Assembly (NCBI GenBank): GCA_030167865.1
Contig: JALAGF010000383.1
Span: 62,001 to 126,000 of the forward strand
Reading direction: 5' to 3'
Length of the DNA stretch: 64,000 nucleotides
From: Craspedostauros australis
Taxonomy: Eukaryota
The notes below the pieces were generated by a model, which saw nothing but the letters and a program-made list of their open reading frames with translations, was not told the DNA's origin and searched no databases. Of this stretch, positions 8,501 through 60,354 are shown piece after piece. The position numbers and the translations under genes were made by a program. Within the stretch, counting starts at the first letter, position 1, and every line of letters starts with the position of its first letter.

Positions 8501-9073
8501 AACAAAAAACACGACGTACACCCGCAAACAAATAACACCACACACACCCACACCCGCACCCGCGCACACATACACATACAGAGAGAGAGAGAGAGGGAGA
8601 AGAGACGTCATCGGCACCAACATTGTGTTGAATTGAGTGGAAACTCAAAGTCACGACAACGGTAAGATCAAACCAAGTGAGAAGAACACAGCGGCACAAC
8701 GCAACCCGGTGCAACCTGCTGAAACCTCCTGGAACCTGTGTTATCTTGCGTGACGGGATGTGCTGTGTGGTGTGACCAGAGTTGCACGCATAATCCACCA
8801 CCTGCTGTCCATGTGGAATATCCGCCTATCTTGGCAAAGGCGCCTATATCAAGAGCAAAACTCATGTGTTGCACGCTACGCTCGCTATACTTACGATACT
8901 CGTTCAATCTGCACTCAACTCCATTCAACGGGCTGCATCATACCAATAATGCTGGTTACGTGAGGACAGGGTCCTCGATTCCTTGATACACAGTATCGCA
9001 ACACACTTCCTAGCAAAAAAACACAACAATATACAAAAAAACACAAAAACTACACAGAAACACACAGAAATAC

Positions 9074-12000
9074 ATGAAAATACACAATAGCAACATCACC
9101 ATGACATCCAAGCATCCCCACCGTCCAATGACGAAACCATCCGCCGCATATGGCGGTGTCCTTCACCGCATGGCGTTGGTGGCAATCACACTCGTCATCG
9201 CTTTCCCGACCATCACCGCTGCGCAGTTCACTGCGTACGACTGCCCGAGCATCCGAGATGCCCCCATTGAGCTTACCGAGACGAGCGTCGAGTTAACAAA
9301 GTTTCAACCTGGAGTGTGCACCGTAACCGCAGTGTCCACCGATCCCGAAGATCCCTATTTCGCACCCATCGCTCGCAGCTACGACAACAGGGATTGGGAG
9401 GTCTCCGCTGGTCGTGCTGCTGGGAAGCTTTCCATCGATTGTTCCGGAATCAATCCAGAAGCAGGCAACACTGGATGCCGCATGACTCTGCCACCGCTGG
9501 GAGACTCCGAGGCCTACGTCCTCACTTCGTACGGCCGATATGCACGCACTGGCAGAGAGGAAGGCAAGAAGGCTCTCATCGCCCGCTTCTTGGAGAAAGC
9601 ATCATTTGGTGTGACGCCAGCTGATTTGACAAGCTCCGACTTATCCTACACCTTCAGCAGCTTCAAGCAATGGATCATCAGACAGATGCAGCTTCCCGCG
9701 ACTTCCCATCGCGAGTTCTATCGCAAGCGAGCCAATGAACGGGCCGAGAAGCCCATGATTGCTGGCGAGGCAGGTCCGCATCCATGCGCCAAGGAATCCC
9801 GCTGGAGGAACTTCGCCTTCACCTCACAAGACGCTGGCAAGTCCTTGACGATTGAATCCGCTGGAGGAGACGAGTACCTCATAAAGGTTGATGGTGTGCC
9901 ACGCACACTGGTCCTCTCCAAGATCGAGCTTGTCGGATTTTCGGACTCCACCGGAACCATCAATGTTGGGTCCGCCATCGACGCAGAGCTCAATACAAAA
10001 TACGTGATTTGCGGAACGGGTGCTACGTTCTACCAAGAGAGTACTTCCTCGCCGTTCCGCGTCAAGAAGCCTGGCCAGGACAATAGCAGGTGCCGCCAGT
10101 TCAGAAATGGCAACCCACCTGTCTACATTGATTCCGCGTCACTCGCTGGCAGCGGCGATAGCGATCGCGCATACATGGTCGATCTCCCTGCTATGGACCC
10201 CGGGTTCACTGGAATTGCAACCGTCGACGACAACACCTACACCAGCGAGCTGTGGGAGGCCTTTCAGGCCAATGACGAGTTCCGCCTCACAGAGGATCTC
10301 GCCGATACCACTTGCGACACCATCGAGATCAACCCAAACGCCATCACTCCCACTGTGTTTGGCCGAACGACCAAGAATGGCATGACAGAGTACTTGCTCT
10401 ACGATCCTCACTTGGTGATGTTGGAGAACACCAGCGAGAATCCGCTGGTCGATGGTGGTGGAGCCGTCGCTCTGTCTTCGGACAACCAAGTGAAGTGCCC
10501 CAACGTCGCACGATCCTTCGTCAATGAAGACCACTGCGTGTTAAGCACCGCTCCAACAGCCTGCAGAGCCGACGAGCCGCCTGTCTTTTCTATCAAGCTC
10601 ACAAAGGAATTCTTGAAGAGGGTGTACGACATCGAAGGACGCTATGTAAGTCAACGCAGCAGGACATTCATTGTGCGCTGCTGCCTTTGTTCGTCGAACT
10701 TATGAATGCGCTCGCTCCGAACGCCACCGCCTCTCTCACTATTCTCCCATGGTTGCTTTGCCCATCTATCAACCTATTCATCGCTGCATTCGTTAATTTC
10801 TACCCTCCTCCACTTGTGAATCACTTCATCAACATATAATCGCCATCACCATCACCATCACTATCCACTACATGTTGCTACTGCTGTGATCAGGTCTATG
10901 CCGTTGAAAATCTCCCACTGAATAACGAGATCTTCACCGACAAGAGAGGAACATTGCAACAGTACCAGCCACCACCATGCGGCAGGTTCAGAAATCGATT
11001 CTCTCGCTGGATGCGTGTAGGTGACACCTTCTGCTCGGGCAATGATTATCGTCACGTCGGTGACGAGACAGAAGCTGCATTCGCCACGTTGCTCCAACCA
11101 GGATTTGATGGCAATGCAGAGGAACCACCGCTTTTGAAGGACGTCCGCTTGTTTGAGAGTCAAACTTGCGACGAAGCTGATGAAAACAAGATCTCCCTCG
11201 GCTACATCAAGGGAATGGACGGCCAATGCTGGCAGCATGTCCACAGCCTGACTCTCAACATATACGACCTCACCAGCTGGGCACCTGCACACAACGGCGG
11301 CGCATACAATATCCAGAAGTGGGCCGAGAATGACCTGGCGATACTCACGTTCCCAAATAGCCACCACTCCAATGGTAATTCCAGGTTTTACACAAACATC
11401 GTGGACGCACCCAAGCAGCGCCCGCTTCTCGGCAAGCTGGGTGATGTGATTCCATTCTCAAGGCTTCCAGCAAACCTCCAAACCGACAGGCTCCGCGAAG
11501 AATTCGGATCCGTCCCTGTCAATCCAAGTGGCAATGGCGTGGTCGTCTGTGGATCCATCGGTGAAGTTGCGAACGATCCATCATTGGGATCAGGATACTT
11601 CGTCGAATCATTCAACAGAGATCGCTTCCCCAACAACCCTGTGCCCTTCCATATCTACCGCACACAGCGACAGACCATCTGGGCACACATTGCCCTCAAC
11701 AGTGCCGATCAGCTCCGGCAACGAGTTGCCTTTGCTTTGAGCCAGATTCTTGTGGTGAGTCCTCAGCTTCTGGGCGATGTCCACGGCACGGAGCTCAATT
11801 TGGACTACTACGATATCTTCGTCCGAGGTGCCTTTGGCAGCTACCGCGACGTCCTGAAGAGAGTCGCCTTCCACGATCGAATGGGAGAGATGTTGTCATC
11901 GATCGGATCAACGAGCTTCCAATTTGCAACAGATTATGGCCGCACATCGCATCCAGATGAGAACTTCGCACGAGAGATCATGCAGCTCTTTTCCATCGGG

Positions 12001-15000
12001 CTCAACGAGCTGAATATGGATGGAACTTTCAAGTTGGATTCTCAGGGTGAACCAATTCAGACGTACGACAACGACGACATCACATCATTTGCAAGGGCAT
12101 GGACAGGCTTGAGACGTCAGCAAACACGCGGCAACCACGAAACGCGTGGACGCAGCATTGATCCAATGGTCATCCATGCGTAAGTATTACATGGATTCAG
12201 AACCGACTGTCGAAGGATTGTGAATTGCCGGATGCGAACAAACATTCATCACATGAACGAGGCTTCATTTCGCCTGTCTCCTTTCTACCACCCAGACGCT
12301 TGGGTCCTTTTCAATCTTCTCACTCTCTTTTGCTGCCTTTCTGCTTTCTACTGTCCGCACGGCCCTCCCATCAAACGCCACTTCCATTCTATCTACCGAC
12401 CACTCGACATACTTCTTTGGTGCATCCCACAACCACAGTCGATGGCGCGACATCTTCCCAAAATCAAACTTGTACAACGGCTTCCTTGGCGATCAGCACC
12501 CGCTCTGCTCTGACCTACCGCCCCGGCATTTCCTCCGGAAAGGAGCAGTATACCGTCTGTTGGGATCGAAGGCCACACCCGAACTCCAGCAGGATCTTGC
12601 GTCTTGGGAGAACGATCCAGAAATCATTCGCCTCAGTCTTGACAACTCCAGCCCACTCTATTCAAAGCTCTGTGCAGGCTCAACCGATGGCAGCGCTTGC
12701 ACCTACCCAGGCAAAGTCGTTCTGCAAGAAAATCTTGACTACACCAATCACCAAGACAGTAGTGAGCTCAATGTCGACACTATTCGCACCATCAGGGTCG
12801 ATTCATTGCCAACCCCAATCTACTATGAGTACATCCGACCAGCCTGCGTTGAGTATGCTTTCTATGACAACGCCAAACGTGTGGTGAACTTTGTCAACGT
12901 GGGAGGGAAGACGACAAACATGCTTTGTGCCAACCCTCTCACCGAAGTGGCACAATCAAACTGCTGTGATCAATCCGATCTCGACTCTGGACTTACTCCA
13001 AGAGCAACCATGAAGTGTGCCTACCAGGGTGAAAGGGTGAAGTACGCAACTGCAGAACAGAGGTGCGCTGATGATGGAAAGGTGCAATGCGATCTTGCGT
13101 TTATTCAACCCAGGACTGCAGGTATTTGTGCGAAAGACAGCAACATAGTTATCGAACGGCGACCGCTGTCGTACAGGTGGACATCAGGTTCTTGCGCTAT
13201 CCAAGCCAAGGTTGATGTGGAAGGCCATGTTGCCATTGTTCATAATCCAGGTACGTGCACACACGAGTATCATGAGTCAAGACAAGGTCGCAGATTGGCC
13301 ACGAGTATGTACAGGCCAACAACTTCCTGCTCTCACACCTTTGCGCAACCTATGCTTGGCGTTGCACTTCATTCCATTGTTTTCATAATCATGTGATCAT
13401 GATGCCCCCCTTCCGATGGTTACGTTGGCGGGACCATGATCCACCGCAACCCCGTCACAACTCCGTCACTGCCATCGACAGAGGCCAATGCAGCAGACGA
13501 ACAGACCATCTTGCCAGGTCTTGGACCAGACACTGAGAACTTCTTCAAGGTGTTTTGGAAGGATGGCGCATTCCCCAAGGCATCCAACAACTGCTCTGGG
13601 TCGGGCGGAGCATGCACCAAGATAGGATCGTCATGTATCTGTGATACCAATACACAGTTCAAGCCATATTTCAGCTCCGCAACGGATTCCTCGGTTTCGC
13701 GCAACGGTATTCTGGACAAACTCTTTGTTGCCGCTCCAGACCCAGCATCTATGCCCACAGGAGTGTACAAGTCCCGTGGAAGCTGTGCAAGAAATCTTCC
13801 AGCCGGAGTGGCTGTGTACACGAAGGAAACATCAAGCACCTGCGGTATCTTCGACGAGGAAACAGTCTTCCGTGTAGTCGACGACAATGGAAGAACGTTG
13901 TTCCTTAAGAACGTCCAGTCTACCGTCACCATTGGAAATGATGACTTCTCCTTTCGCAACCCAGTCCATTTTATGAGCTTCGCCAACCCCGAGGCTCGCG
14001 ACGCCTACCACGAAACTGATGCCGCTCTGAATCACTACTTCTACCACCCAAATCACGCACCGTTCTTGGCGGTCCGAATGCTCCAACGATTCGGATTCTC
14101 CAACCCGTCTCCGCGATTCGTCAACGTTGTCGCGAATGCATACAAGAAGGGCTCATACCATGGAATTGGGTCCAGCCAGTATGGCGATCTCGCTGCCATG
14201 ATCACAGCCATCTTCCTCGACAGAGAATTTCGATCGCTAACGCTGGACTCTGATCCAGCATACGGTCAACTTCGCGAGCCGCTTCTCAAGGTGATCGCCG
14301 TCCTGCGATCCATGTCGTACAAAAATGACAGTCCGATCATGTGGCCATTCCTCGCAGACATGGAGGGCAAGATCGGCGAAGGCATCTACGAGGCCCCAAG
14401 TGTGTTCTCATTCTTCCTTTCTGATTTCGTTCCACCTGGACGAGTCTCAGATGCATCCCTGTACTCGCCAGAGGCCCAAGCTATCTCAGCATCGACAGTT
14501 ACTGGGATGCTCACTGGACTATTCAGAATGACTCAGTTTGGTAAGTCGGAACCAGAGTGCTGTATTGGAACATGTGTGCTTTGCTGCATGCCATGCGATG
14601 GTATTCCACACTGCGGCTTCGGCTGTCGTCATATATACATATATCACAACTTCCCTTCTCACCGATATCTTCTTTCCATATCATCTTCACCGTCTCTCCT
14701 CTTCTTTTCATTGGCAGGCATCACGTCGGCAGCATGCTTCAACGGCTTTGGTGAGGAGACGCCAAACGGCTTGAGGGGATGCGAGTCCCGAAACAACATC
14801 GGCGATACATCCAGATCATTCGGGTCGCTACAGTTTTCATCCACCGCAACTGCAGCGCCGGATCTGATCGATGAGCTTTCGCTGCTGCTGACTGCGAGCC
14901 GTTTGCAATCGGTGAACCGCCAACGCATCATCGATGCCGTTTCCCCCTTCATGGGCACAGACAAGGACAAGGCGATTCGACTGGCACAACAGCTGATCGT

Positions 15001-16348
15001 CACCACCCCAGAGTTCCATTCCAACAACGTCATTCGAATGACCGGCGAACCGCGCCTAGCCGAGCCACCTATTCCTCGAAAGACCAACACGTACAAGGCA
15101 GTGATCTACTTCATGTTCTCTGGTGGCATGGACTCCTTCAACTTGGTGGCTCCGAAGTCGGAGTGTGGATCCACTAATCTGTACCAGCAGTACAGCGATA
15201 TCCGTGGTTCGGCTGCCCTTCCACAGTCTGATCTTCTCACTATCAACGCCAGCAATCAACCGTGCGAGCGCTTCGGTGTCAACAAGGCATTCCCACTTGC
15301 GCAGACGCTGTACAATAGCAACGAAGCCATGTTTTTCGCTAACATCGGCGTTCTAGATGAACCCGTCACCAAGGAAGACTGGAAGCTCAAGACGCGCACG
15401 TTGCTGTTTGCACACAACATCCAGCAAGAGGAAGTGCAACGACTTGACATCGAGAAGGAGCTCAGCGAGTCTGGCGTCGGCGGGCGCATGCTCGACACCT
15501 TGAGAGATCTTGGATACAGGACTTCGGCCAATATGATTGGTGGCAACTCTCGCGTGGTCAAGGGATCACCAAAGAAGAATCATCCGGTGACACAGCTTCC
15601 GCTCTGGTCCCCAGCGCCATTCAACAGAGATGCCGAGGTTGACGACATGAATGCCCTGCTCAACTCCTTGAATAGCGCAAGCGAACAAGACAACAGCGTG
15701 TACGGTGATGTCTGGTCGACGCAGGTGGTGAAGAGCATCAACGACACAAAGACTCTGACGGATATCTACAACAGCAACCAAGTCGAAGGTTTTGACAATG
15801 ACAGTTTGAGCGCCTCTTTCGAGTCGATCGCGACATGGATCAAGTCGCGTGGTGACAGAGGCGTCGAACGCGAAGTCCTTTTCGTTTCGCACGGTGGTTA
15901 CGATCATCATGCAGTGAGCAGGTTCAACAACGTGAACACCAAGCTCAAGGATGTCAACGGGGCCCTCGAGTCCTTCGTGGCTGAAATGAAGCGTCAGAAT
16001 GTGTGGGATGATGTCGTGATCATGACCGGCTCTGACTTCGGACGTACCTTGACCCCCAACTCGGGTGGAGGCACTGATCATGGATGGGCGAGCAACGGCT
16101 TCATGATGGGCGGCAGCATCAAGGGTGGTGTCATTCGTGGAACATACCCAGACGACTTGACTCCTGAGGGACCGTACAACATCGGCCGTGGGCGCTTGAT
16201 CCCCACATTGCCATACGAGAGTCCATGGAATTCCATCGCGGAATGGATGGGTGTGGATTCGAGTGAAGGACTCGATACCGTCCTTCCCAACCGCGGCAGC
16301 TTCGATTCTGGCGCGCTGTTCACGGCTGACGATCTCTTCAACATGTGA
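9074..16348 (+). CDS. Probably secreted DUF1800-DUF1501 fusion protein, 5 exons, ~2119 aa
   Basis: Exons 9074-10645, 10894-12179, 12439-13250, 13482-14540 and 14718-16348. All introns are GT..AG (gtaagt/gtacgt donors) with matching phases, and the spliced length is 6360 nt. DUF1800 motifs: ARFLEKASFGVT, DQLRQRVAFALSQILVVS, PDENFAREIMQLFSIGL, YDNDDITSFARAWTG, HPNHAPFLAVRMLQRF..SNPSP, GDLAAMITAIFLD, GQLREPLLK. DUF1501 motifs: YKAVIYFMFSGGMDSFN, LFAHNIQQ, GGYDHH, SDFGRTLTPN..GTDHGW, GGSIKGG, GRLIPT. A signal-peptide-like MALVAITLVIAFPTITAA starts at ATG 9170, so the start choice is uncertain. Confidence 0.9.
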
Positions 16349-16500
16349 GGTATCACGTGCGAGCTGTCACGTGTGGGTGCTGCATCTCGAGGCAGAGTAT
16401 TCGAGTGCAACACAAAGGTGAGAGGGGGGCTTCATGTCGGAGCATTGAAACGGCATGTGCCTGCGGTCTGAATCTTACACACTCGGATTTCATCATGCAG

Positions 16501-16565
16501 CAGTACCATACAACAGTACCATACAACAGTACCATACAGCAGTACCATACAGCAGTGCCATACAG
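16501..16565 (+). repeat. 13-bp minisatellite, 5 copies (cagtaccataca[a/g])
   Basis: cagtaccatacaa x2, cagtaccatacag x2 and cagtgccatacag x1, about 150 nt downstream of the DUF1800-DUF1501 stop. Confidence 0.95.
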
Positions 16566-17600
16566 CAAACCAATTTCCCTCCTGTCGCCCGATGAGTGCA
16601 AACACCATCTCATTGAACAATTGAAGTTGTTTTGCAAAGGGCGCGATACTTGCAGAGCATGGTACTGGTAAGCAGCCAAATCAATATAGTTCGAATCCAG
16701 TTCGAAGTGATACATAGCAACGAGTATCACATCGCGGTCACCGGATCACAGAACCAGCATCATTTGTACGCTTTCAAGCTATTTACGACCTATTGTCCCT
16801 TGACTGTTGTGGTCGGAGCAACGGAACACGTTCGTCTTCGCTTTTGATTTTTGGTTTTCATCACCTCCTGACGCGGATACACCGAATCAGCTCGAAGCGT
16901 CCACAGTTTTGGTCGAAGAAGTCACAAAGGTGGCGGGTTGTTTGAAACAATGACATTTCGAGAGCCCCAGCGAATGACGCAGTGCGCGACTTCTGTTTAG
17001 TCCGATTGTGTTCGCGGTTGTTCTTTGAATGCCGTCGAAGGACTTTGCTGTCCTGTGGACAGTCAACCTCCCATGTTTCGCGTGTCGCACCGCCTCCAGG
17101 AACACAACTGACGAACGTCTCTCCCTTGTTGATGTTGGCGGCAACACCCATCAACACCATGCGCGGTCGTGCAACAGCAACAATCTCTCCCCCAACACAG
17201 CACACGGAGTCATCCATCCCCCACCCACCTCGCACAAACAACACAGAGCCCCAACACACCATCATCCCTACCTACGACACACAATTTCGATTCGCAAACT
17301 GAACTCAGCAGAGGACGGAACAGAACGTAAAATCGGATTTGCTGTTCTGTTTTTGCAGCGCATGCACACTCGCGACGCCAAACACGGCACCAACAACAAG
17401 GAACTCGATCGAAGCACCATTGCCAACACAGCGCCACCAACAACCAGCCATCCGGCCCATTCACAGATCATCGCAGATTGCCTGGCTCATCGGTTCGCCC
17501 GACATCCACCAAGACAGGTGCGAGCACGAGTGCCGACACGAGCAGAGCGACACAATAACGTTCGAGCGCCAAGATCAGCAGCGGCTCCGACAGCAACATC

Positions 17601-26816: not shown

Positions 26817-29800
26817 TTACGAAGTGCTGCGAGCGCTCTGACTCCTCATGCTGACGGCGCTCACGAGGCTGTTGCTGCGGCTCCTTGTAGATTCGGCTGG
26901 TTTGTCTGGCAACGAGGACGAGAAGAAGATACGCACGAGCCAGTTCATTCCGAACGCTCCGTCACGGTCGCGCATGGAGCTTTCGACCCTGTCGAACGTC
27001 TCCGCCACGGCATACAACTTCGCACCCCAGCCATTCAGCTTGATTGTGTACATGTTATTCTGAAAGCTGTACGATTCAACAATTCCGTCGCCGTATGCTG
27101 TGAGCACTTCCTCTCCCACCGCAGCTTTCAGCGGTTGTATCACTGCATCTGGTTGCAAGTACATGACCATGCCGGCAGACTTGCACGTTACCAGATGCAC
27201 ACCTGGATATTTCGAAATGAGATTGAAGGAGTGGAACGTGATTAGCGTTGCAACAATGTGCATTCACAAACACCAGACAGAAACGAACGGAACGGAACGG
27301 AACAGAGTTGAGAACGGTGGAGTGGGCGAAGGGAAATGTCAGTGTATGTGTGTCAGCACGAACTAGGCACCACATCATCCAAATGAAATAGAAGGCGACA
27401 GAAAGATGAAGGATGTCACACTTGATAACAATATTTTTCGTGCACGTACTGCACGCCAAGGGACCAAGTGCATTCATCGCTGTCATTGTCATTGCTGTTG
27501 CTGTTGCTGTTGGCGTCTGCCATTGTCCCTCACCTGTTGTCGGTTCGACCGATTCAAGCACGCCTGTCAAGCCAAGGTACGTGTAAACAGGATACCCTTC
27601 CTGACAGCCTTTCGCGATGCGATGGCTGACATCATTCTGTTGGATGTAAGCTACTGCGCACGTTTTGTCACCGCCCAGTTTCCATTTCGTCAAATGCACC
27701 TCGTAGATGCCATCATCGTCGCGAAACTTCTTCACAACGCCATCGCCGTATGACGTTGAGACGGAGGCAGAGTCCTGGTAGTATTGTCTGTACTTTGGTT
27801 TTGGCGTATCAACCTCCGACTCCCTTCTGGTGTTCCTTTGCGACGTGCCAAGGATGCTGGCGAAATCCAGCGTGGTCGTCACCAGTGAACCAAAAGCTGA
27901 GAGGATCCCATCCGACGATCTGCTATTGATGGTGTGCTTGGGGCTTTTCCATCGCTCTGCCTGCTCCACAGTGCAATACAGCATGGGGTGGCTGCCGTCC
28001 TTCAGTTTCCACGATGTAAGCTTCAATCCAATTGTTTGCACGTCTTTCGCCGCAACATCCGGCTTTGCCGCTGTTGTTCCGATGGCTGCAGATGCCGATG
28101 TATTGTTTCCTCCTGATGCTGCCGTTGGTGTTGCTGCTGGTGGTGTTGCCACTGGTACTGACGACGATGATGGTGGTGATGATGATGATAATGATGATGA
28201 CGGAGCTCCCACCGCTGGTTTGGACGTTGCTGTCGGCAATGTGGAATGCTCCCCATTGCCACTTTTGGGAGGCAATGGCAGCGGCCGCACGACAGAGGCT
28301 TCGCCGTAGGGTGTTTGGATGATGGTGCCTTTGATGTAAGGGAATTCTGCTGGCTTGGTTGAGTTGTCCAACCCGGAACTGGACTGTCTGCGAAAGATTG
28401 ATGAAAAGATGCCTTGTGATATTGGTCGGATTTGATCTTCCTGCAGGTACGCTTTGGCTGGCCATCCAGTCATGGTAACCTCAACAATAGAGTCTGAGAT
28501 CCTGTGCTTCACGATTGTTGCAGCTCCATAAGGTGTCGAACATTTGTCTCCAGTCTTGAATTTGGATTCGCTCTTTGGCTTGCTTGACGTTTCCGCCGTC
28601 CAGAAAGAGAAAAGACTCGACTTCTTGCTCGGTTCTGACAACTTTGGGGGTGTATAGCGAGAGATGCATCTGCCTCTTATTCTGAGGGTTGTTTTGAGTT
28701 TCGATGATCGAATCGCTGCAGGAGCCACCGTCGTTGTTGATGCCAAGGGTTTCGGATCGATATCGATATCGACATCGACATCGACGCTACCGTTTGCATC
28801 TGCATTCGCATCAGTTTGGGTATCGTTGCCATCGATTGAGCTGCGAGTGGGCGCGTCGGTATCCTCCTCCTCATTGACGGTCGTGAGATGGTCCATCGCT
28901 TTGCCGTAGTCGCCGTCTGTGACAGTTGATGAAATCACTCTCAGCGGGTTCACTTGCCCTGAATTTTCAGGCTCGTCGCCGGTCTTGTTTTGATCGAACG
29001 AAGGAGCATTTGCGACTGCCGATCCTCTGCCGCGGTCCTTGCTACTGGTTTTGCCATCGCTAGTTTTGCTATCGCTTTGGCTGCTGCTGCGATCTCTGCG
29101 CCTGAGGGACTCCGTGTCGTTGGCGGCAGCAGCACGATCGTTCGGCTCGTCTTCGTTCGTCTCATCTGTTTCTAAGACCGTCTCCAATGACGCGACTTGC
29201 GTTGACTTGTCTTTGTTGGAGTTCGACCTCGGTCGAATGGCTTCTTCTTTGACCCGTTGTAGATGCGCTTTGATTTGGACATCCAGCGGCCGCCAATCCA
29301 GCTCCACGTCGTACATGTCAAAGTTGGCATCATAGCCTCGCACGATGCCGCGGCCGTACGGAGTGTTGATCCATGTGCCCTGCTGCCATTCCTGCTCTGA
29401 CGGGATCAAATCGACTGGCGGGAGGTTGTTGGCGATGAGGAAATCGTTTGCTTTTGACAGAGATTGGTTCAGCTCTCCCCTACGATCTGCCTTCTGCTTC
29501 CGGGATGTCCATTGCTTGGGCTGCACGCCGTTGAAGTCCTTGACTGCATCCATGCACACGCGGCGCAGGCCACTGATTCGGATCAACGGCGGTTCACAGC
29601 TTGCCGCATGCAACGCTGCCTCCGGGTAGGTGCGGAAGAAGACCGGTTTGAATTCCTTGTCTCTCCATCGTTCCGGTGCAAAGCCGTATGTTTTTGAAAC
29701 GTCTTTGACCGTGTGGACGTAGAGCGCCTCGAATTCGTACGGGAAGGCATCGAACATGAGTTCGCCAGCGCGCACATCGCCCTGTCCATTGTCGCAGACG

Positions 29801-31919
29801 AACACATGCTTGTACTCAGGGTATATGGACACGTATCTTTGGAAGTTGGAAAATTTCTTCGCTGCGAGCGGTTCGCAGTCATTGGTCGCGATGAAGTGCG
29901 ATCCTGATGCCAAGTCTCCCGCCAGCAACGATGGCACTGTGTGCATCCCGGCTCGTCCGTCCTTCGCGACCCGGAGCTTTTCAAACTTGGCAAAGTTGCT
30001 CTTCTCGCTCATGTCCTTGTACACGTGTGGGCGCGCGCTGAGGAACACCAGGTTGCCAACCCTGTGCTCGGGCCATTCCTCAGGACCACGAGTTCCCAAA
30101 TCAAGCTCGCGGTAGAACGCAAGCACGCCTGGGTACACCACCTTGCGCGAGTACTTTTTGTCGATGCCAGCGGGGTAGACGCCGCCGCTGGACAACAGAG
30201 TATCGTCAACGTCGGAAAGCACCTTCCTCCATGCCATGTGCTGTCTCTTCCTCGCTCGTTTGGTCATCATTTGCTGATGAGCCTGCTGCACGGTCGCCTC
30301 TCGACGGATGTGGCTGAGGATGTCCTGCCGTACAGTTTCGGATTTGATGTCGTCGTATATCAGCTTGTTCATGCAGAAGTAGTCGCCCTTGGCATCGGTG
30401 AGTGTTTTGATGTCGGACAGATCGTCGCCGTGGCTGTTCAGGATAATGTTCCGCACCCATTGCTCGGCACGTGGATTCGCGCGGAGCTTGAGCATTTGCA
30501 AAGCGTGCAGCACGATGACCCTTGAAATTGACGTCAGGGCGGGCAGACGATCAACGGCCAGCAGTTGTGTGAGCTGCGTGCGGTGTTGGCCTGCGAAGTT
30601 GTGATGGTCCTTGATCTTATAGATCAAAAGCCCCAATCGAACATGGTTGACCAGATGATTCAGTGCAACGGCGTCGCATTCCAGGAAAATGTTGATGATC
30701 TCCCTCTCCTTTTGCAAAACGAAGCGCTCGTTGATGAAGTTGTTGATCGTGGACGGTATGAGGAGCTGGTCGATGTTGCGGAGGCATTCCTCGATCCGCG
30801 CAAGCTGTTGCTCCACTGGGATGTTGTTCGCGTTCGATCCGTGCGCGAAGGATGATGATCTCCGCAACTTCGTTTGCCGGCTGAGAGCCATACGGTGCGC
30901 ATGTCGGTCCCAGAGATGCATGGCGTAACTGGAAAGGACCACGCCAACGAAACCGAAGGAGGGATTCTCGATCCCGAATGCCACCGGTGAATCTCCCGCG
31001 AAGAAGAGCGCCGTCGAAAAGAGCAAGGCAAGGATCGTCCAAAATCTATTCTCAAATTCTTGTGCGTGATGCACTCCACTCTCCTCGTACGCCATGAAGA
31101 GGTAGACCGTGTAAACCAGCGAGAACAGGCACGAGCATATTACTGGAGCCACGGCGAAGAGCGCAAGCAGCATCAGAATCAGTGTCTGCCATCCCCAAAG
31201 AGTTGGTATCAGCGGAGCGCATACCAGTTTTTGTTTGTTTGTTTTTGGGAATCCCATTCCGATTTTCACGATTTGGTGATGCCACCATTGGCGTAGCCAT
31301 GCATGATGTTGTTTGGTTGATACGCGTACGAGTGCACATACCGCCATCGTCGTGGGCATGAGCAAGGGCGTGGGGTGTGCAAGAAGGGATTTGCGGGTGA
31401 AGGGATGGAAAGGTGGAAACGTGGATGAGATAGCTGATGCTTAACGGTTCGAGGCGCAATCTTGATGGTCGCAAACGAATTGTACACAGCAATACAGTCG
31501 TGTGATTCGTCTCTGGTGTTGGTATTTGAGTATAGCACAGTATGCACTTTTGCAAGTGCTTGTGTTTGATGGGTACGAATTCGTGGATTATTCGTGCGTC
31601 GTCAGCCAGTGCTTCCACTGAGGAGCCAATGAAGTCATTCAAGCCAGACAAGCCATTCACGGGGTGGCTGCCGTCACAGAAGATGAGCTTCATCGGTTGC
31701 ACCGCCCATGCAAGTGTGCAGGTACTCCCACGCACGGTGATTAGGAATCCACGCCATTCATGGTGCTATATTCACATCATTCGCACCACCTGGGACACCA
31801 CCATGCCAGTTGGCGCTCGTTGGCGCTGGTTGCGCCTTGTAGAGTATGAAACGTATGAAACGTATGGTACGTACCACCAGGACCCCCAGGAGAAGGAGCA
31901 TCGCCACGAACCGATCCAT
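26817..31919 (-). CDS. Membrane protein with App1-like (HAD) phosphatidate-phosphatase-type domain and six TPYG-type beta-barrel-like repeats
   Basis: The well-supported part is 31185-27534 spliced to 27202-26817 (intron 27533-27203, gtgag..ccag, phase 1, giving EPTTG|VHLVTCK). Tentative 5' exons are 31919-31875 (MDRFVAMLLLLGVLV) and 31765-31577. There are several N-terminal hydrophobic helices. Catalytic-type motifs: KVLSDVDDTLL, VYPGVLAFY, VFLSARP, FVCDNGQGDV. Confidence 0.75.
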
Positions 31920-48175: not shown

Positions 48176-49813
48176 TCAGCCCAACGTGGTCTTGTCGCTA
48201 ATATCAACAGCAATCGCAACGAGATTGGCCTCGTTCAGCAACCACTCCTTCGTGTTCTTGCTGGCTCCGCTTGAACTGTCGAGCTCAGCCTTTCTTCTGC
48301 ACTCGGGGACAGATGCCAAATACAACAGGCAGATTGCGTTGACCGGATCAAAGAATATGGAGTCTCCGCCAAGCTTGCTGCAGGCGTGAGCAGCTGGCTT
48401 CTCCATCTCATCCTCGCCAGCTGCGTCGGTTGCGCCAGCGGCCTCAACTGCCGGGGCTTCTTTCACCGTTGCTTTCGCCTCCGTGGTCGTCTTCATCTTT
48501 GCCTTCGCCACCTCCAGCAATGCTTCCCGCATAGCGGCAGATCGCCTCGCATCCTCTTCGCAGTCGTTGGCCAATGACAAGGGCTCAAGCACACGCCACA
48601 CATCCATTTCGCCATCCTTCGTCCAGTAGCCGTACACGTCCTCCCATGTCAAAGCATCGGCCCCGATGCTATTGACGAACTCTTTGTACTTGCGACGCAG
48701 CGGGCCTGCTGCCATCTTCGATCGAAAAAGCAACGAGACAGGCTGGGGACACGCGCATCCCCGTGCTGTGTTCACACTCTTGCAGATCAAACCAGAACTG
48801 CGCACCTTCGTGTCATCTTGGGTCTCATCTTCTTGTCTCAACGATGGGCCGCACTCGGCTGTTGCTATTGGCTTGAAGGAGAGCAATGCAAATCCGCGGG
48901 ACATTTTCGTGGTTGGGTCTTTGGGCCGCATGGCCTCGAACACGGTGGGCAGATCTACCCAATGGACGCCGTACTTGAATCTGGCCGTGTCAAGGATGAG
49001 GACCTTGTCTGAGACTTCATCGTATGCTGCAATGGGAGAAAAGTGACCGCTCCCTGTCTGACCAAGTACCTTGCGAGAGTAGGAAGCAACCAGCAGCTGC
49101 GTCGGTCCAGTTTGCTCCGCGCTTTGCTCGCGGTCTGCGAGGTCATCCGACGACTCGGTGCAAGCAATTCTTACCGCCTGTCGGAAATCATCCAGCTGGT
49201 CATCGCTGTTGCAGTGCGTCGCATCGACGGAGAGGCCCTGGCACTGAGCCAAGCAGACGAAATCTTTGAGCGTGATCCCAGTCTTCGCCACATCTTCCAG
49301 ATCTAAACAGCAGTTCAGCATCCCCTCATGATACCACCGCCACGGCCCTTTCCACGTTTGGCGGGGGTCCACCGCCAGGGCATTCAGCACAACGACCAAG
49401 GTGGAGATGCCGCAGAAGGCGGGCTCGGACTGCGTCGTGAATTGCTCCATCAATGGGAAGTACGACTTCAGCCCATTCGTTTGCAACGCGGACGCAAAAA
49501 TGGACCTGCCCGCAGGCGATGTAAATGCCGTGCACGTTTCCGGCAGTGGACGCTTGTAAAAGGAGACACCGGCTTTGGGGCGGTTCACCTTGGCCTTCAC
49601 AGCATCTGCGTCAGTATCGGCACCTGTTCGATTGACGAGAGCTGCGACTTGCTTGCGAGAAGGACACCGCCCTGCTGGTCCTCGCATTGAGGACGGCAGG
49701 CTGCTGACACCAAGTGACAAGCAACCTTGCATGACGAGCGTGAACAACAGCAGCAGCGGTGTGGAAAGGTGAATCAGTACCAAAAACGATGCGCCACGCT
49801 GCCTTTGGGTCAT
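48176..49813 (-). CDS. PCS: Phytochelatin synthase (glutathione gamma-glutamylcysteinyltransferase)
   Basis: SFYKRPLPETC, then catalytic triad contexts TQSEPAFCG (Cys), GQTGSGHFSP (His) and LILDTARFKY (Asp), plus WKGPWRWYHEGMLNCC and a Cys-containing C-terminal region. The first ATG is 49813; the ORF-track start 49885 is a GTG. Confidence 0.95.
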   Translation of the reverse strand: MTQRQRGASFLVLIHLSTPLLLLFTLVMQGCLSLGVSSLPSSMRGPAGRCPSRKQVAALVNRTGADTDADAVKAKVNRPKAGVSFYKRPLPETCTAFTSPAGRSIFASALQTNGLKSYFPLMEQFTTQSEPAFCGISTLVVVLNALAVDPRQTWKGPWRWYHEGMLNCCLDLEDVAKTGITLKDFVCLAQCQGLSVDATHCNSDDQLDDFRQAVRIACTESSDDLADREQSAEQTGPTQLLVASYSRKVLGQTGSGHFSPIAAYDEVSDKVLILDTARFKYGVHWVDLPTVFEAMRPKDPTTKMSRGFALLSFKPIATAECGPSLRQEDETQDDTKVRSSGLICKSVNTARGCACPQPVSLLFRSKMAAGPLRRKYKEFVNSIGADALTWEDVYGYWTKDGEMDVWRVLEPLSLANDCEEDARRSAAMREALLEVAKAKMKTTTEAKATVKEAPAVEAAGATDAAGEDEMEKPAAHACSKLGGDSIFFDPVNAICLLYLASVPECRRKAELDSSSGASKNTKEWLLNEANLVAIAVDISDKTTLG

Positions 49814-51021
49814 TCGATGGGGATGGCGGTTCGTTTTGTTGAAGGAGAGAGTAGTCTGTTGTTGATGGAAGTCCTCGTGGTGCACGAGTACTCGTACGAG
49901 AATGTAGGTGTGGAGGATGGTCGAGTAGTTATAGTGTTACGAGTGATCCACGGACAGGACGGTGTTGCATCATTCAATCCTGGTGGGTGCCATCATCTTC
50001 GATCACCAATGACCGTGTCTCTGCTTGGCAGGTTTCCTTGTTGGGCACAGGTTTGGTGGTTGGCTCGTCTTGGATGCGATGGGATGGGCGCGGAACAACG
50101 TTCGTTGTTGCTTCGGCCTGCTTCGGCCTGCTTCGGCAGAATCGTCCCCGTGACTTGTTCTCTGTTGGATCACGAATAGCTTCGTTTAGTCGTGCATAAA
50201 TGTGGACGTTGGGCTGTTTTCCACACGGAACGACGACAGCATTAATTTGTATTCAGATATGAGTATATATATATTGTGTCGTAGCAGAAACGATCACCTC
50301 CTCACAATTTCTCCCGACCAACAACGACCAACAACGACCAACTGACAACCAAAACGACGATTTTGCGGATTGGCACATCAAGTGTGCGGAGAGGTGCATC
50401 CAACAGCAACGGTATCGCAACGGCGCAAACAACGTCAACTGCCATGATCGGTGGTGGTAGTACTCACATTGCGCCCGAAATAGTGCGGTGGGAACACCTC
50501 ACCTCACCACACCACACCACACCACACCACACCACAACACTTCTCAACACTTCTCAACACAGCAAAAGCACTACCATCACTACCATCGCTGCCGTCACTG
50601 CCAAATCATTTTCCACATCAAGATACGAGCCGTTCTTGCACTTGGTGGACATACAAGCACATACTAGCACATGCGAGCGCTCTTGCCCTTCCTCTTTCTG
50701 GAACTCGCACTCCGTCCATACAGTACAAGGAATGTTTCATGTAAATTGATTGTCTCCATCATCCCTCAAAGAACGAACGCTTCATTCCAAGACACAATCA
50801 AAGACTACCGACACATCATCAAGCACGCAGGGAACAGAAGCATCGAAAACACGTCTTCATTCGATATCCTCCAATCTCCATCCTCCTCTTAACCATTCAA
50901 TCAAGCATCTGCTGGGTCAATCATCCATCGAACCACCCCTCCACCCCTCGATCAACCCAGCATTATCAAGCTCGGCTACATCCACGAACAAGCCGGCATC
51001 GTTCGAACCAACCACACCGAC

Positions 51022-53500: not shown

Positions 53501-54101
53501 CCGTCGGTCGGAGGTTGTGTGATTATGACTCAAAGGCGACGATGAGAGAGGATGCGGATGAATAGTACTGTGCAGCCAGGCAACTGCGCGTACCTCATGT
53601 TTCTCATCACGTTGCTGTTGCTGGCATCTCCCCGAAGATCCTTTGTGTTCTTTTTCGTTCTTGACGCTGGATCTCTCCGTCTCGAAAGATACCGACACAG
53701 AATCGCTGTTTTGTGGACAAGATGCACGCGGAGTGTGCGCAGACAGGGCAGTAACAGGAAAAGGAAAGCGTGGTGGCGGAAAGCAGCTCGTAGCCGATTG
53801 TCGCTGTCGGTCACACCAACGACGGGCGGAGGATCTTCGACAGTCGTGCGCAAAGTCTACTAACAGAGAGTGCCGCAGCTCGTACTACTACACATACGAC
53901 GAACCATCGCCTGTGCAGTACCAAGAGTCTCTTTTCATCCGAAGATACCCACCCTAACCGTTGTTGGTGTTGCATCCGAAGCAACCGACACCAGCAGAAA
54001 ATCTCACCCCACACCAACATCTTGATCATCAGGCAACATCAGTACTGTACTAGTGGCGTAGATGGTAGAGAAGAATTGGCGACTGCGCGTACGGATGAAG
54101 C

Positions 54102-55376
54102 ATGATGAATCCATTCAAGCCGCATTGGGATCTTTACCCCAAGACGTACACAGCTCCAAAAGCACCGACCTCCTTCCTGGATCAGCTCAACGGGGATTTG
54201 ACCAAGCCTGCGTGGGCATCGGTGCCGTGGTCTGACGATTTTGACGATATCCGCGGAGTGGAAGATGCGCCGCAAGCGGAACGACCGTCGCCATCCTGCC
54301 GCACGCGTTTCAAAGCCATGTGGGACGACACCCATCTGTACTTCGGCGCATTGGTGGAATCGGACTTCGAAACGCAAGCCCACTTCACCGAGCGGAACTC
54401 GCCGATCTATCAGAAAGATTCCGACTTTGAGATCTTCGTCGACCCCATCGGAAGCTGTCACCACTACAAGGAATTTGAAGTGAATGCCATCAATACGGTC
54501 TGGAACCTCATGCTGGACAAACCGTACGGCGACGGCGGCAGGGAGTTTTCGGGGCGAGTTGCCAAGCCTGGGGAAGAGCAGTACTACGAGGTTTACAATC
54601 AACGAAGTGCCACCAAAGTGGTCAAAGGTCGCTTGAACAGCCCCGGCCAAGGGGCGACGTGGTCTGTGGAAGTCGCGATGTCCTTTGACGACTTACTCAA
54701 GGATGAGTTTCTCGAGGATCACGTCGGAGATACGAGCATTGGCTCCACCACCACTCCAGCAGCTGATGACGGCGCACACTCACGCATCAGTCCACCACCT
54801 CCACGGGCTGGCACAATGCTGAGGGTGAATTTCAGCCGGGTGGAACATCAGGGTGATACCAACTGGACATGGCAACCGCAGATTGTATGGGACCCAACAC
54901 GGAGTAGATACGGCGGGTTCATTCAGATGCACTTCCCGGATGCCTGGGGATACCTTGTCCTTGGTGATAGTAGTGACGAGGGCGAACGTGCGTTGCAATC
55001 GAACGGAACGGGTCGTCTGGATCTTACAATCGCGAACAATGGCGATTCGAACGGAAACGCTGGTGCGACCGTCCGTGATCCTAGTTGGCCAGCAAGATTG
55101 GCTGCGATGAATGTCTACTATGCCCAGCACGCCCACCGTGATGCCGAAGGAGTATTCGCGTCGACGATGCAGCAGCTCGCGCCATTCGTTGATCGCAATG
55201 TGACGGAGCCGTTCAGCATCCGGCTGTCGACACAGTCGCCATCGTCGTCGGAGCCATCCAGTGATCACTTCTCCGCGGTGATATCAAGCGAGCACCTGAA
55301 TTGTGAGGTCTCCATCACGGACGATCGACATGTGCAAGTCCAAAACGAGGCAACAGATGTTTCCGATGCGAGATAA
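54102..55376 (+). CDS. Carbohydrate-binding family 9-like (CBM9/DOMON-like) protein, 424 aa, intronless
   Basis: LNGDLTKPAWASVPWSDDFDDIRG, TRFKAMWDDTHLYFGA, DFEIFVDP, YKEFEVNAINTVWNLMLDKPY, WSVEVAM, RVNFSRVE, NWTWQPQ and MHFPDAWGYL. An in-frame stop just upstream (54096-54098) fixes the start, assuming no upstream exon. Confidence 0.82.
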   Translation: MMNPFKPHWDLYPKTYTAPKAPTSFLDQLNGDLTKPAWASVPWSDDFDDIRGVEDAPQAERPSPSCRTRFKAMWDDTHLYFGALVESDFETQAHFTERNSPIYQKDSDFEIFVDPIGSCHHYKEFEVNAINTVWNLMLDKPYGDGGREFSGRVAKPGEEQYYEVYNQRSATKVVKGRLNSPGQGATWSVEVAMSFDDLLKDEFLEDHVGDTSIGSTTTPAADDGAHSRISPPPPRAGTMLRVNFSRVEHQGDTNWTWQPQIVWDPTRSRYGGFIQMHFPDAWGYLVLGDSSDEGERALQSNGTGRLDLTIANNGDSNGNAGATVRDPSWPARLAAMNVYYAQHAHRDAEGVFASTMQQLAPFVDRNVTEPFSIRLSTQSPSSSEPSSDHFSAVISSEHLNCEVSITDDRHVQVQNEATDVSDAR

Positions 55377-59562: not shown

Positions 59563-60354
59563 GGGATTGTATCACCGTTGCTCTTCAGCTCTTCTGTTGC
59601 TCTGCTTTTCTCTCCTCTGCGAGTACTAGTGTGGACACTGTCTCTTCGTTCTTGCGTCGTTCTGCGTCACGTTGTGGGATGGCCTCCTTAGTATGTGACA
59701 TCTATGTATCCGATGTAAAGTATGGTATGATGCCATGGAAGTATAATAATATAGCACGACCTGGAGAGAAGGAAAGCTCGAACGATGCGGGCTCATCGGC
59801 AGAGCATGGTGTCATCATCGTATCTTCTGTGTGGGTGTCGGCACCAGATTGTCCAGCACCGAATGTGTCATCGTCGATGGTTTGATCGGACGAGTCATCC
59901 GCAACCCGAATATGCATCCGACAGACAGACTTCGCGCCAAAACGCCTCCGCGAACGTGTTGGGACTTCGCTGGCTCGAATTCTGGCGATTGTCTCGCGAA
60001 CCAAAACAGAAGCGTTTCACACAAAAACGCTGCGCCCACAAAACCACGCTCTTCCGAGAAAGCTTGTTGTCAAAGTTCATGACAAAGCATCGCCAACGAG
60101 ATGACAACCAACCAGATACGCAAACCACATCAAATCACATTTCTCCATTCTACTCTCCTGCACTCTCCAAAGTGGAGCCAACTGAACTCCATTCATCTCA
60201 ATTCCACTCCGCAAAGACAATACCGAATACAACAACATCCCCAAGAGGCAACTTCCTGATCCAAATCACCGCCGTTCAGAGGATCACCCATACAGTTACC
60301 TGAGCGTACTATACACCCTGCTGCTGAATTCCAATTGAAATCGAGTCTGGGACA

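Follow-up and report, generated by a model that had tools for sequence, protein, structure and literature searches.

A spliced DUF1800–DUF1501 fusion gene of Craspedostauros australis with a cytochrome b5-like module and a predicted rebuilt metal site

The protein families DUF1800 and DUF1501 are very common in marine bacteria and in those of the Planctomycetes–Verrucomicrobia–Chlamydiae (PVC) group, with more than 100 DUF1501 candidates within single bacterial genomes, and are expanded in diatoms; they have no assigned function. The closest described systems are the bacterial pairs in which the two genes are neighbours, and the PVC-type DUF1501 proteins that go with PSCyt1, PSCyt2 and PSD1 modules, whose PSD1/PSCyt partners carry heme according to the accessible text of PMC3542564. 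We describe here a gene of C. australis that encodes both families in one chain, located in a stretch of 64,000 nucleotides (assembly GCA_030167865.1, contig JALAGF010000383.1, positions 62,001 to 126,000, forward strand) hereafter called the window. The initial annotation had presented it as a bacterial gene pair fused into one giant, probably secreted eukaryotic protein. The interest of the locus lies in an apparent change of the DUF1501 active site and in a predicted heme module, not in the fusion itself. Neither a function, nor a eukaryotic fusion, nor the conserved active-site His was described in the accessible portions of PMC5122149, PMC6653060, PMC12981691, PMC7563939, PMC3542564, PMC3597751, PMC5615132 and 10.1101/2020.11.24.383182.

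The window protein shares with the bacterial pair the two domains, their order, the invariant motifs, probable export and conserved positions at the predicted interface. It differs in being one chain, in a signal-like peptide instead of a twin-arginine translocation (Tat) signal, in about 1100 aa of Cys-rich additions, in a cytochrome b5-like module and in the Ala that takes the place of Ser before an invariant His. The bacterial side was sampled by scanning 4 of the 64 parts of the genome collection and keeping the best 80 matches, which gave 75 loci. Both genes were found in 66 of these, as 67 adjacent DUF1800-then-DUF1501 pairs and never fused, and 65 of 69 DUF1501 N-termini carried a twin-arginine motif, which agrees with the separate, often Tat-exported genes described in the initial annotation. 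This export signal has no counterpart in the window DUF1501, which is internal and preceded by a linker. The PVC-type modules have the same His and the same D-x-H, EFGR and DH motifs, are exported, and include a large heme-bearing partner, sometimes with sugar-binding domains (PMC3542564, accessible text). That partner, however, has c-type heme motifs and no detectable sequence similarity to DUF1800, and the first metal Asp of the PVC-type DUF1501 is changed to Ser.

Fold and active site of the DUF1501 domain

An AlphaFold2 model of the window DUF1501 (predicted local distance difference test, pLDDT, 91.9) matched 68 chains at Z ≥8, including PafA (Z 17.0, root mean square deviation 4.1, 278 residues aligned) and NPP (Z 16.7, 3.6, 250 residues). 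Foldseek returned sulfatases and LtaS-type enzymes, and transferases of the LtaS/EptA type were among the structural matches. The predicted fold is thus that of the alkaline phosphatase superfamily. Sequence searches with exon 5, with the homologous Stauroneis protein P0049 and with the DUF1501 and DUF1800 profiles found no solved relative, and NCBIfam gave no match for any of the five proteins submitted. The bimetallo enzymes of the superfamily (PafA 5too, Xanthomonas NPP 7mw8, ENPPs and phosphopentomutase; Z 14.5–17.0) appear, by motif order, to share with DUF1501 the Asp after strand 1, the D..H pair, the strand-end Asp and the late His. DUF1501 departs from them in carrying His where they have Thr or Ser, D-x-H in place of D-x3-H, and Phe for the 'DH' His; identity is only 10–15%, and DUF1501 has an obligate-looking helical partner. 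The formylglycine (S1) sulfatases have the same fold and were the top Foldseek matches (E 3e-7, TM ~0.39), but their C/S-x-P-x-R motif is missing at the equivalent helix of the window domain.

The recognisable DUF1501 motifs lie at aa 1712 (GGMDSFN), 1969 (GGYDHH), 2016 (DFGRT) and 2028 (GTDHGW). The site was compared over 120 eukaryote-type, 67–68 bacterial and 30 PVC-type rows. D1715, H1809, D1972, H1974, D/E2016, R2019, N2024, D2030 and H2031 were invariant or nearly so in the 120 eukaryote-type and 67 bacterial rows. The equivalent of H1809 was kept in all of these and in 29 of the 30 PVC-type rows, whose 'DH' metal motif had, in turn, exchanged its His for Phe in 113/114, 67/67 and 29/30 rows, respectively. 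In PafA, D38 is a metal ligand, T79 is the nucleophile and the strand-end D352 is followed by H353 (10.1101/2020.11.24.383182, accessible text). The corresponding segment of the window protein is LFAHNIQQ, and neither of its two candidate nucleophile positions is occupied by Ser, Thr or Cys. The remaining ligands of PafA we take to complete a set of six (D, D+H, D+H, H); by motif order, five of these have plausible equivalents in the window DUF1501, and the equivalent of H353 is the Phe.

The register of the lost nucleophile was located by the motif that follows it. Sulfatases read C-x-P-x6-TG in 22/22 sequences, a set picked for CxPxR, and PafA/NPP-type enzymes T-x-P-x6-TG in 3/3. PVC-type DUF1501 reads N-H-x-P-x6-TG in 24/30 and keeps the H..TG spacing in 27/30, with a His that aligns with H1809. 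In the bacterial DUF1501 proteins partnered by DUF1800, a Thr or Ser stood at +9 from the His in 62/68, as opposed to 3/68 when counted from the preceding residue. H1809 is also the first helical residue in the model. The residue before it depends on the clade, being mostly Ala in eukaryote-type rows (89/120), Ser in bacterial rows (64/67) and Asn in PVC-type rows (29/30), with Asp, Gly and Thr as well; it seems to behave as a helix cap would. When the profiles of PVC-type DUF1501 and of sulfatases were aligned directly, the match was confined to the C-terminal strand (probability 21) and left the nucleophile region outside. The simplest reading is that the His at the nucleophile position is a ligand swap that would complete the metal site. 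The alkaline phosphatase- or sulfatase-like fold with an Asp/His site, proposed at the outset, is therefore retained by the model and the conserved residues; a phosphatase or sulfatase activity does not follow from it, since there is no Ser/Thr/Cys nucleophile. Judged from its motifs, the domain appears to be neither a classical phosphatase of the AP/NPP type nor an S1 sulfatase.

The Ser of the bacterial LFSH motif was considered as a nucleophile subsequently lost in algae, and was dropped after the PVC-type motif and the register counts. In two paralogs from the same genome, C198 and C1547 (L012, L013), the invariant His is preceded by Ser (LFSHN), and in the window gene and the other paralogs by Ala. 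Ser at this place was commoner in homologs without the b5 module (9/21) than in those with it (7/67), a comparison not controlled for relatedness.

The putative heme module, the DUF1800 partner and the possible reactions

A segment of insert 1b (aa 630–705), overlooked in the initial annotation, which listed only DUF1800 and DUF1501, resembles a cytochrome b5 domain and is a predicted heme binder. PF00173 was the best match in all six stretches compared, from the window and its paralogs (E 1.9e-5 to 1.3e-3), and two of the five paralog stretches reached the cut-off. In the PDB, a profile built from the six sequences retrieved almost exclusively b5 domains, and its two His lined up with those of Scs7. 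Searched against 1.84 billion proteins, its 12 top matches that were checked comprised six multi-b5 proteins, five DUF1800 proteins and one unassigned protein. The candidate ligands H657 and H681 are 24 residues apart, the canonical b5 spacing. Of 72 well-aligned modules (78 extracted rows, minus five poorly aligned ones and the query), 69 retained both; the module was present in 67 of the 88 homologs that span the region, and dN/dS within it was 0.17. The b5 domains of known fusions (Scs7 4zr0, flavocytochrome b2, sulfite oxidase) share the YD..W...HPGG motif and the second His; the window module differs in its insertion in a predicted secreted protein, its weak scores and the variable loop between the two His. 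In the representative library, six proteins (P0216–P0220 and P0234) carry 5 to 11 tandem cytochrome b5 domains each.

The partner domain was modelled for a bacterial DUF1800 protein (516 aa, pLDDT 94.7). The model, searched whole, had no Foldseek match at E 0.001; the best Z was 3.5, and several weak rows were phycobilisome linker domains. DUF1800 thus appears without a structural relative among those searched, which does not prove a new fold. Homology to PSCyt2/PSD1 was not supported by sequence (hhalign probability 0.2, hidden Markov model scores no better than reversed controls). The bacterial pair L066, modelled as a complex, scored 0.93, compared with 0.01 for the best of three controls; of 78 solved complexes, 51 attain the score mark used, as do 2 of 108 mismatched pairs. 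The runs shared at least 65% of contacts, and the pLDDT of the partners was at least 83. Recall of a solved complex is unlikely, because no solved DUF1800 relative was found. In this bacterial stand-in, the C-terminal lobe of DUF1800 is predicted to dock on a helical hairpin of DUF1501, and the interface positions G1485, L1669, P1674 and W1909 are conserved in the window fusion. The DUF1800 motif DENFARE and the predicted metal ligands both lie outside the listed interface. The bacterial DUF1501 profile retrieved 41 long proteins, of which P0126 and P0142 are compact fusions that lack the eukaryote-type inserts and are probably separate bacterial fusions; together with the modelled complex, these two argue for the earlier proposal that the two domains act as one system. 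In three loci (L074, L087 and L090), extra tandem DUF1800 genes stood next to a single DUF1501 gene, and one catalytic subunit may take alternative partners.

We tentatively favour an exported metalloenzyme whose rebuilt two-metal site would be redox-active, or kept reduced by the b5 heme, and would act on anionic extracellular glycans. The protein would leave through the endoplasmic reticulum (ER). One metal ion would be bound by D1715, H1809 and D2016, and the other by D1972, H1974 and H2031, with D2030 nearby. H1809 would stand in for the nucleophile and also for the missing His of the 'DH' motif, and with this residue in place no usual covalent phospho- or sulfo-enzyme would form. R2019 and other invariant arginines would hold the anionic substrate, and the b5 heme would reduce the metal site or keep it reduced. 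The glycan is our guess at the substrate.

Heme carriers appear to have been recruited twice, separately, alongside DUF1501, as b5 here and as c-type heme in the PSD1/PSCyt proteins (CxxCH in 26 of 29 partial open reading frames, ORFs), and this is counted in favour of a redox role. Regarding the substrate, named carbohydrate-binding modules (CBM35 or CBM4/9) occurred in 7 of the 120 listed homologs, and C-type lectin, PAN, CBM6 and F5/8 domains in others. Next to the bacterial pairs, F5/8 type C domains were found in 17 of 121 neighbour proteins, from 16 loci, and fused in 2 of 18 N-terminal extensions (121 of 127 proposed proteins were scanned, three long and three overlapping or duplicate ORFs being set aside). 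Of 25 Bacteroidota loci, 18 thereby have such a domain either in a neighbouring gene or fused to the pair; outside Bacteroidota, no F5/8 neighbour was found. The DUF1800/DUF1501 pair was co-transferred with bacterial chitin synthases, according to the accessible text of PMC5122149.

Several observations weigh against this proposal. The window b5 stretch scores 19.1 bits (E 1.3e-3), below the Pfam cut-off of 23.7, and the His–His spacing among homologs ranges from 22 to 44. The module is missing from 21 of the 88 spanning homologs, its profile matched none of 2342 ORFs of the bacterial loci, and CxxCH occurred in none of 74 bacterial DUF1800 proteins; with b5 optional in the homologs and neither kind of heme motif found in the sampled bacterial pairs, the core reaction may do without a fused heme. 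H1809 was assigned from the sequence register and the helix start, not from a residue-level superposition, and the Ser preceding the His is nearly invariant in one bacterial clade (64/67). The metal site is not uniform across the family, its first Asp being Ser in 27 of 30 PVC-type proteins, and the predicted complex comes from a bacterial stand-in. As for the glycan, no sugar-binding module was identified in the window protein, a named carbohydrate-binding module is present in just the 7 homologs mentioned, the neighbours of the bacterial pairs are mostly unrelated, and the F5/8 neighbours, all in Bacteroidota, may reflect a single inheritance.

A plain hydrolase is somewhat unlikely but deserves the most attention among the alternatives. 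Here the His/Asp two-metal site would activate water, cleaving phosphodiesters, sulfate esters or amide/acetyl groups of extracellular glycans, with b5 as a dispensable accessory. The top structural relatives all act on phosphate and sulfate esters, as hydrolases or as transferases, most metal ligands and the invariant Arg are retained, and b5 is absent from the 21 homologs and from the bacterial pairs. Such an enzyme would, however, leave unaccounted for the retention of both heme His, the low dN/dS of the module and the heme recruited by the PVC-type partner, and catalysis in the superfamily, as described for PafA, passes through a covalent threonine intermediate (10.1101/2020.11.24.383182, accessible text). 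We hold it rather improbable that the protein is a non-catalytic surface binder or scaffold that binds a metal or an anion such as phosphate, sulfate or uronate and serves in uptake, sensing, adhesion or the assembly of wall and mineral. The absent Ser/Thr/Cys nucleophile would fit, as nucleophile loss tightens phosphate binding in PafA-family enzymes (same source), and so would the many paralogs, the adhesion-type add-ons, the calcium induction of 2 of 10 DUF1800 genes in Emiliania huxleyi (PMC7563939, accessible part) and the presence of two DUF1800 proteins in Entotheonella vesicles that bear mineral (PMC12981691, accessible part). These proteomic and transcript mentions are incidental, however, and three His, three carboxylates and an Arg strictly invariant across distant clades would be more typical of catalysis. 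Improbable to a greater degree is a phospho- or sulfo-transferase working through a phosphohistidine at H1809: the residue is invariant and at the nucleophile register, and LtaS/EptA-type transferases were among the structural matches, but the concurrent loss of the 'DH' His would be more simply explained by H1809 filling the metal position, a metal-bound His is a poor nucleophile, and the heme would stay unexplained.

Extending the preferred redox metalloenzyme to the whole family, DUF1501 could form, within the alkaline phosphatase superfamily, a branch of oxidoreductases in which the His in place of the nucleophile would complete a redox-active two-metal site, DUF1800 would dock as an obligate partner of new fold, and heme carriers would have been added twice independently (c-type in planctomycetes, b5 in protists); we consider this possible but doubtful. 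Under this hypothesis, diatoms and other protists would possess a multigene family of secreted enzymes, self-contained and heme-wired, that remodel cell-surface or marine polysaccharides. A textbook hydrolase fold would then have changed its type of reaction, and these secreted algal enzymes would make up a new class that matters for carbon turnover in the sea. The fusion, the modelled complex, the diagnostic H1809 and the heme module make the function of the family directly testable.

Gene structure, homologs and export

The splice check joined the five exons of the initial annotation into 2119 codons with a single terminal stop, across four introns that are all GT-AG. Both halves scored far above the Pfam cut-offs on the spliced gene: PF08811 with 92.4 bits in exon 2 and 71.6 bits in exons 4–5 (cut-off 26.1), and PF07394 in exon 5 with 96.6 bits (E 2.2e-27, cut-off 27). 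The transcript-derived protein P0049 of Stauroneis constricta aligned as a single colinear segment over aa 38–2117 (61% identity), with no gaps across the four exon junctions. Intron 3 has six candidate acceptors, five of which keep the frame; the acceptor at 13481 is the one that gives the gap-free alignment. The sequence of intron 4 is missing from P0049. Against the closest paralog, C2243, dN/dS was 0.16 over 2008 codons, and 0.14–0.19 in each part tested. The window gene is real, intact and spliced as one unit under purifying selection. That it is two genes or a mis-spliced model, as the in-frame intron 4 and the several acceptors of intron 3 might suggest, is very improbable and largely refuted already by the colinear P0049, by paralog C1131, in which both families lie within one stop-free frame of 1871 aa without introns, by the presence of both blocks in one chain in 120/120 homologs, and by the position of the junction: the end of DUF1800, the linker and the whole DUF1501 are all within exon 5, so the fusion is independent of the splice model.

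The Craspedostauros genome has at least 10 PF07394 and at least 19 PF08811 matches, which are lower bounds and not copy numbers. The eight paralog stretches examined comprised five long copies and three DUF1501-end fragments on short contigs. Identity of the long copies to the window gene was ~84% for C2243, ~63–88% for C6435, ~36–55% for C198 and C1547 and ~33% for C1131. GT-AG introns were found at the positions of the window gene for 4/4 introns in C2243 and C6435 and 3/4 in C198; in C1547 both ends were located for 2/4. C6435 has a 5-base gap relative to the window gene in DUF1501 (L018:2170-2200), shifting the frame between D-x-H and SDFGRT, and is either a broken copy or an assembly error. 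The fragments C4879, C216 and C6037 (L015–L017), with DUF1501 ends 94–99% identical, are either allelic, recently duplicated or the product of a collapsed assembly.

With the C1131 frame as the query, 265 of 7986 scored database proteins reached E ≤1e-10. In the 120 listed, both Pfam labels were present in 115 and both blocks, by our own alignment, in all. Eukaryote-type fusions came from diatoms (Stauroneis P0049, Seminavis, Nitzschia, Pseudo-nitzschia, Epithemia, Thalassiosira and Ditylum), Hondaea, the haptophyte Prymnesium, the dinoflagellate Prorocentrum and the amoeba Pyxidicula. They have the architecture of the window protein, with 30–61% identity over most of the length, and differ among themselves in add-ons (CBM35, CBM4/9, lectin, PAN, F5/8, WW), in the b5 module and in having a signal peptide or a signal anchor. 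The window gene is an ordinary member of a widespread, undescribed family, and its architecture is common in databases and not new, as had been suspected; no paper describing eukaryotic DUF1800–DUF1501 fusions was found, subscription papers and supplements being outside the search. Two fusions, P0012 and P0102, carry an N-terminal WW domain, which suggests membrane-anchored members with a cytosolic tail.

Hydrophobic 13-mers of ≥2.2 were found in the window protein only at starts aa 32–35, and 39 of 55 homologs with a seemingly complete N-terminus had a similar segment. The chain contains 38 Cys, many of them invariant and mostly within the inserts. This pattern, with the single hydrophobic segment near the start, would fit an ER-exported protein, and the window fusion is likely secreted or at the cell surface; some homologs appear to have a signal anchor instead. 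Plastid targeting is unlikely, judged by eye from the Gln after the probable cleavage site and the acidic stretch downstream. The DUF1800 motifs are all present, as had been noted, but do not form one domain in sequence: block profiles place them in three pieces interrupted by Cys-rich inserts. These inserts had no match among the ORFs of the bacterial loci, insert 2 had no usable match in Pfam, PDB or Atlas, and insert 1a had none in Atlas; no convincing internal repeats were seen among them. A lectin-like or DUF7495 identity of insert 2 (a single Atlas row at 0.88, without Pfam or PDB support) and an F5/8 identity of the N-terminal module (the S-x-D-G-x-x-W motif alone, probability 5) were both rejected.

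In a quick tree of the DUF1501 half, built from a limited sample (43 eukaryote-type, 46 of 68 bacterial and 6 of 30 PVC-type rows), a weak branch (support 43) separated off the eukaryote-type rows, which lay next to the bacteria (support 79), and no group stood out as the donor. A bacterial origin of the fusion is plausible; the acquisition from bacteria asserted in the initial annotation is not borne out by this tree, in which the eukaryote-type rows stand beside the sampled bacteria and not inside them.

Feature coordinates and neighbouring genes

Table 1. Features of the fusion gene and other elements, in window positions
Feature	Position	Strand	Content or evidence
Degenerate 10-base A/C-rich repeat	9014-9087		Across fusion gene start
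Exon 1 (aa 1-524)	9074..10645	+	Signal-like peptide, Cys-containing N-terminal module, DUF1800 block a, insert 1a
Hydrophobic signal-peptide-like segment (aa 29-50)	9158..9223	+	Hydropathy; true start may be Met10, Met20 or Met34
DUF1800 block a (aa 165-225, ARFLEKASFG)	9566..9748	+	Block profile matches most bacterial DUF1800 proteins in their N-terminal region
Intron 1, 248 nt, phase 0	10646..10893	+	
Exon 2 (aa 525-952)	10894..12179	+	Insert 1b with b5-like module, then DUF1800 block b
Cytochrome b5-like module (aa 630-705)	11209..11436	+	Predicted heme ligands H657 (11290-11292), H681 (11362-11364)
DUF1800 block b (aa 780-965; DQLRQR, DENFAREIMQLF)	11659..12475	+	PF08811 E 4.6e-26, invariant residues; spans intron 2
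Intron 2, 259 nt, phase 2	12180..12438	+	
Exon 3 (aa 953-1223)	12439..13250	+	Bulk of Cys-rich insert 2
Insert 2 (aa 966-1375), ~13 near-invariant Cys	12476..13936	+	Conservation; spans intron 3
Intron 3, 231 nt, phase 1	13251..13481	+	
Exon 4 (aa 1224-1576)	13482..14540	+	
DUF1800 block c (aa 1378-1680; HPN, LREP, PSVF, TPEF)	13943..15028	+	PF08811 E 9.2e-20; predicted DUF1501-docking surface; spans intron 4
Intron 4, 177 nt, phase 1, in frame, stop-free	14541..14717	+	
Exon 5 (aa 1577-2119 + stop)	14718..16348	+	DUF1800 end, linker, whole DUF1501
DUF1501 domain (aa 1700-2119)	15086..16345	+	Predicted alkaline-phosphatase-superfamily fold; D1715, H1809 (15413-15415), D1972, H1974, D2016, R2019, D2030, H2031
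13-base tandem repeat, 5.7 copies	16494-16567		Just past stop codon of fusion gene
1454-aa open frame	27076-31440	-	Weak APP1 phosphatase-like match alone, E 8e-5
Phytochelatin synthase	48176-49936	-	E 6e-82
ORF with CBM9-like match	54099-55376	+	E 5e-6
PIF1-like helicase start	60328-61680	+	RNase H1 N-terminal (Cauli_VI) domain ahead

The neighbours of the fusion gene in the window are eukaryotic and unrelated to it, and include an ABC transporter, a CRAL-TRIO protein, the phytochelatin synthase, an HSF, a RING protein and a DOT1 protein.

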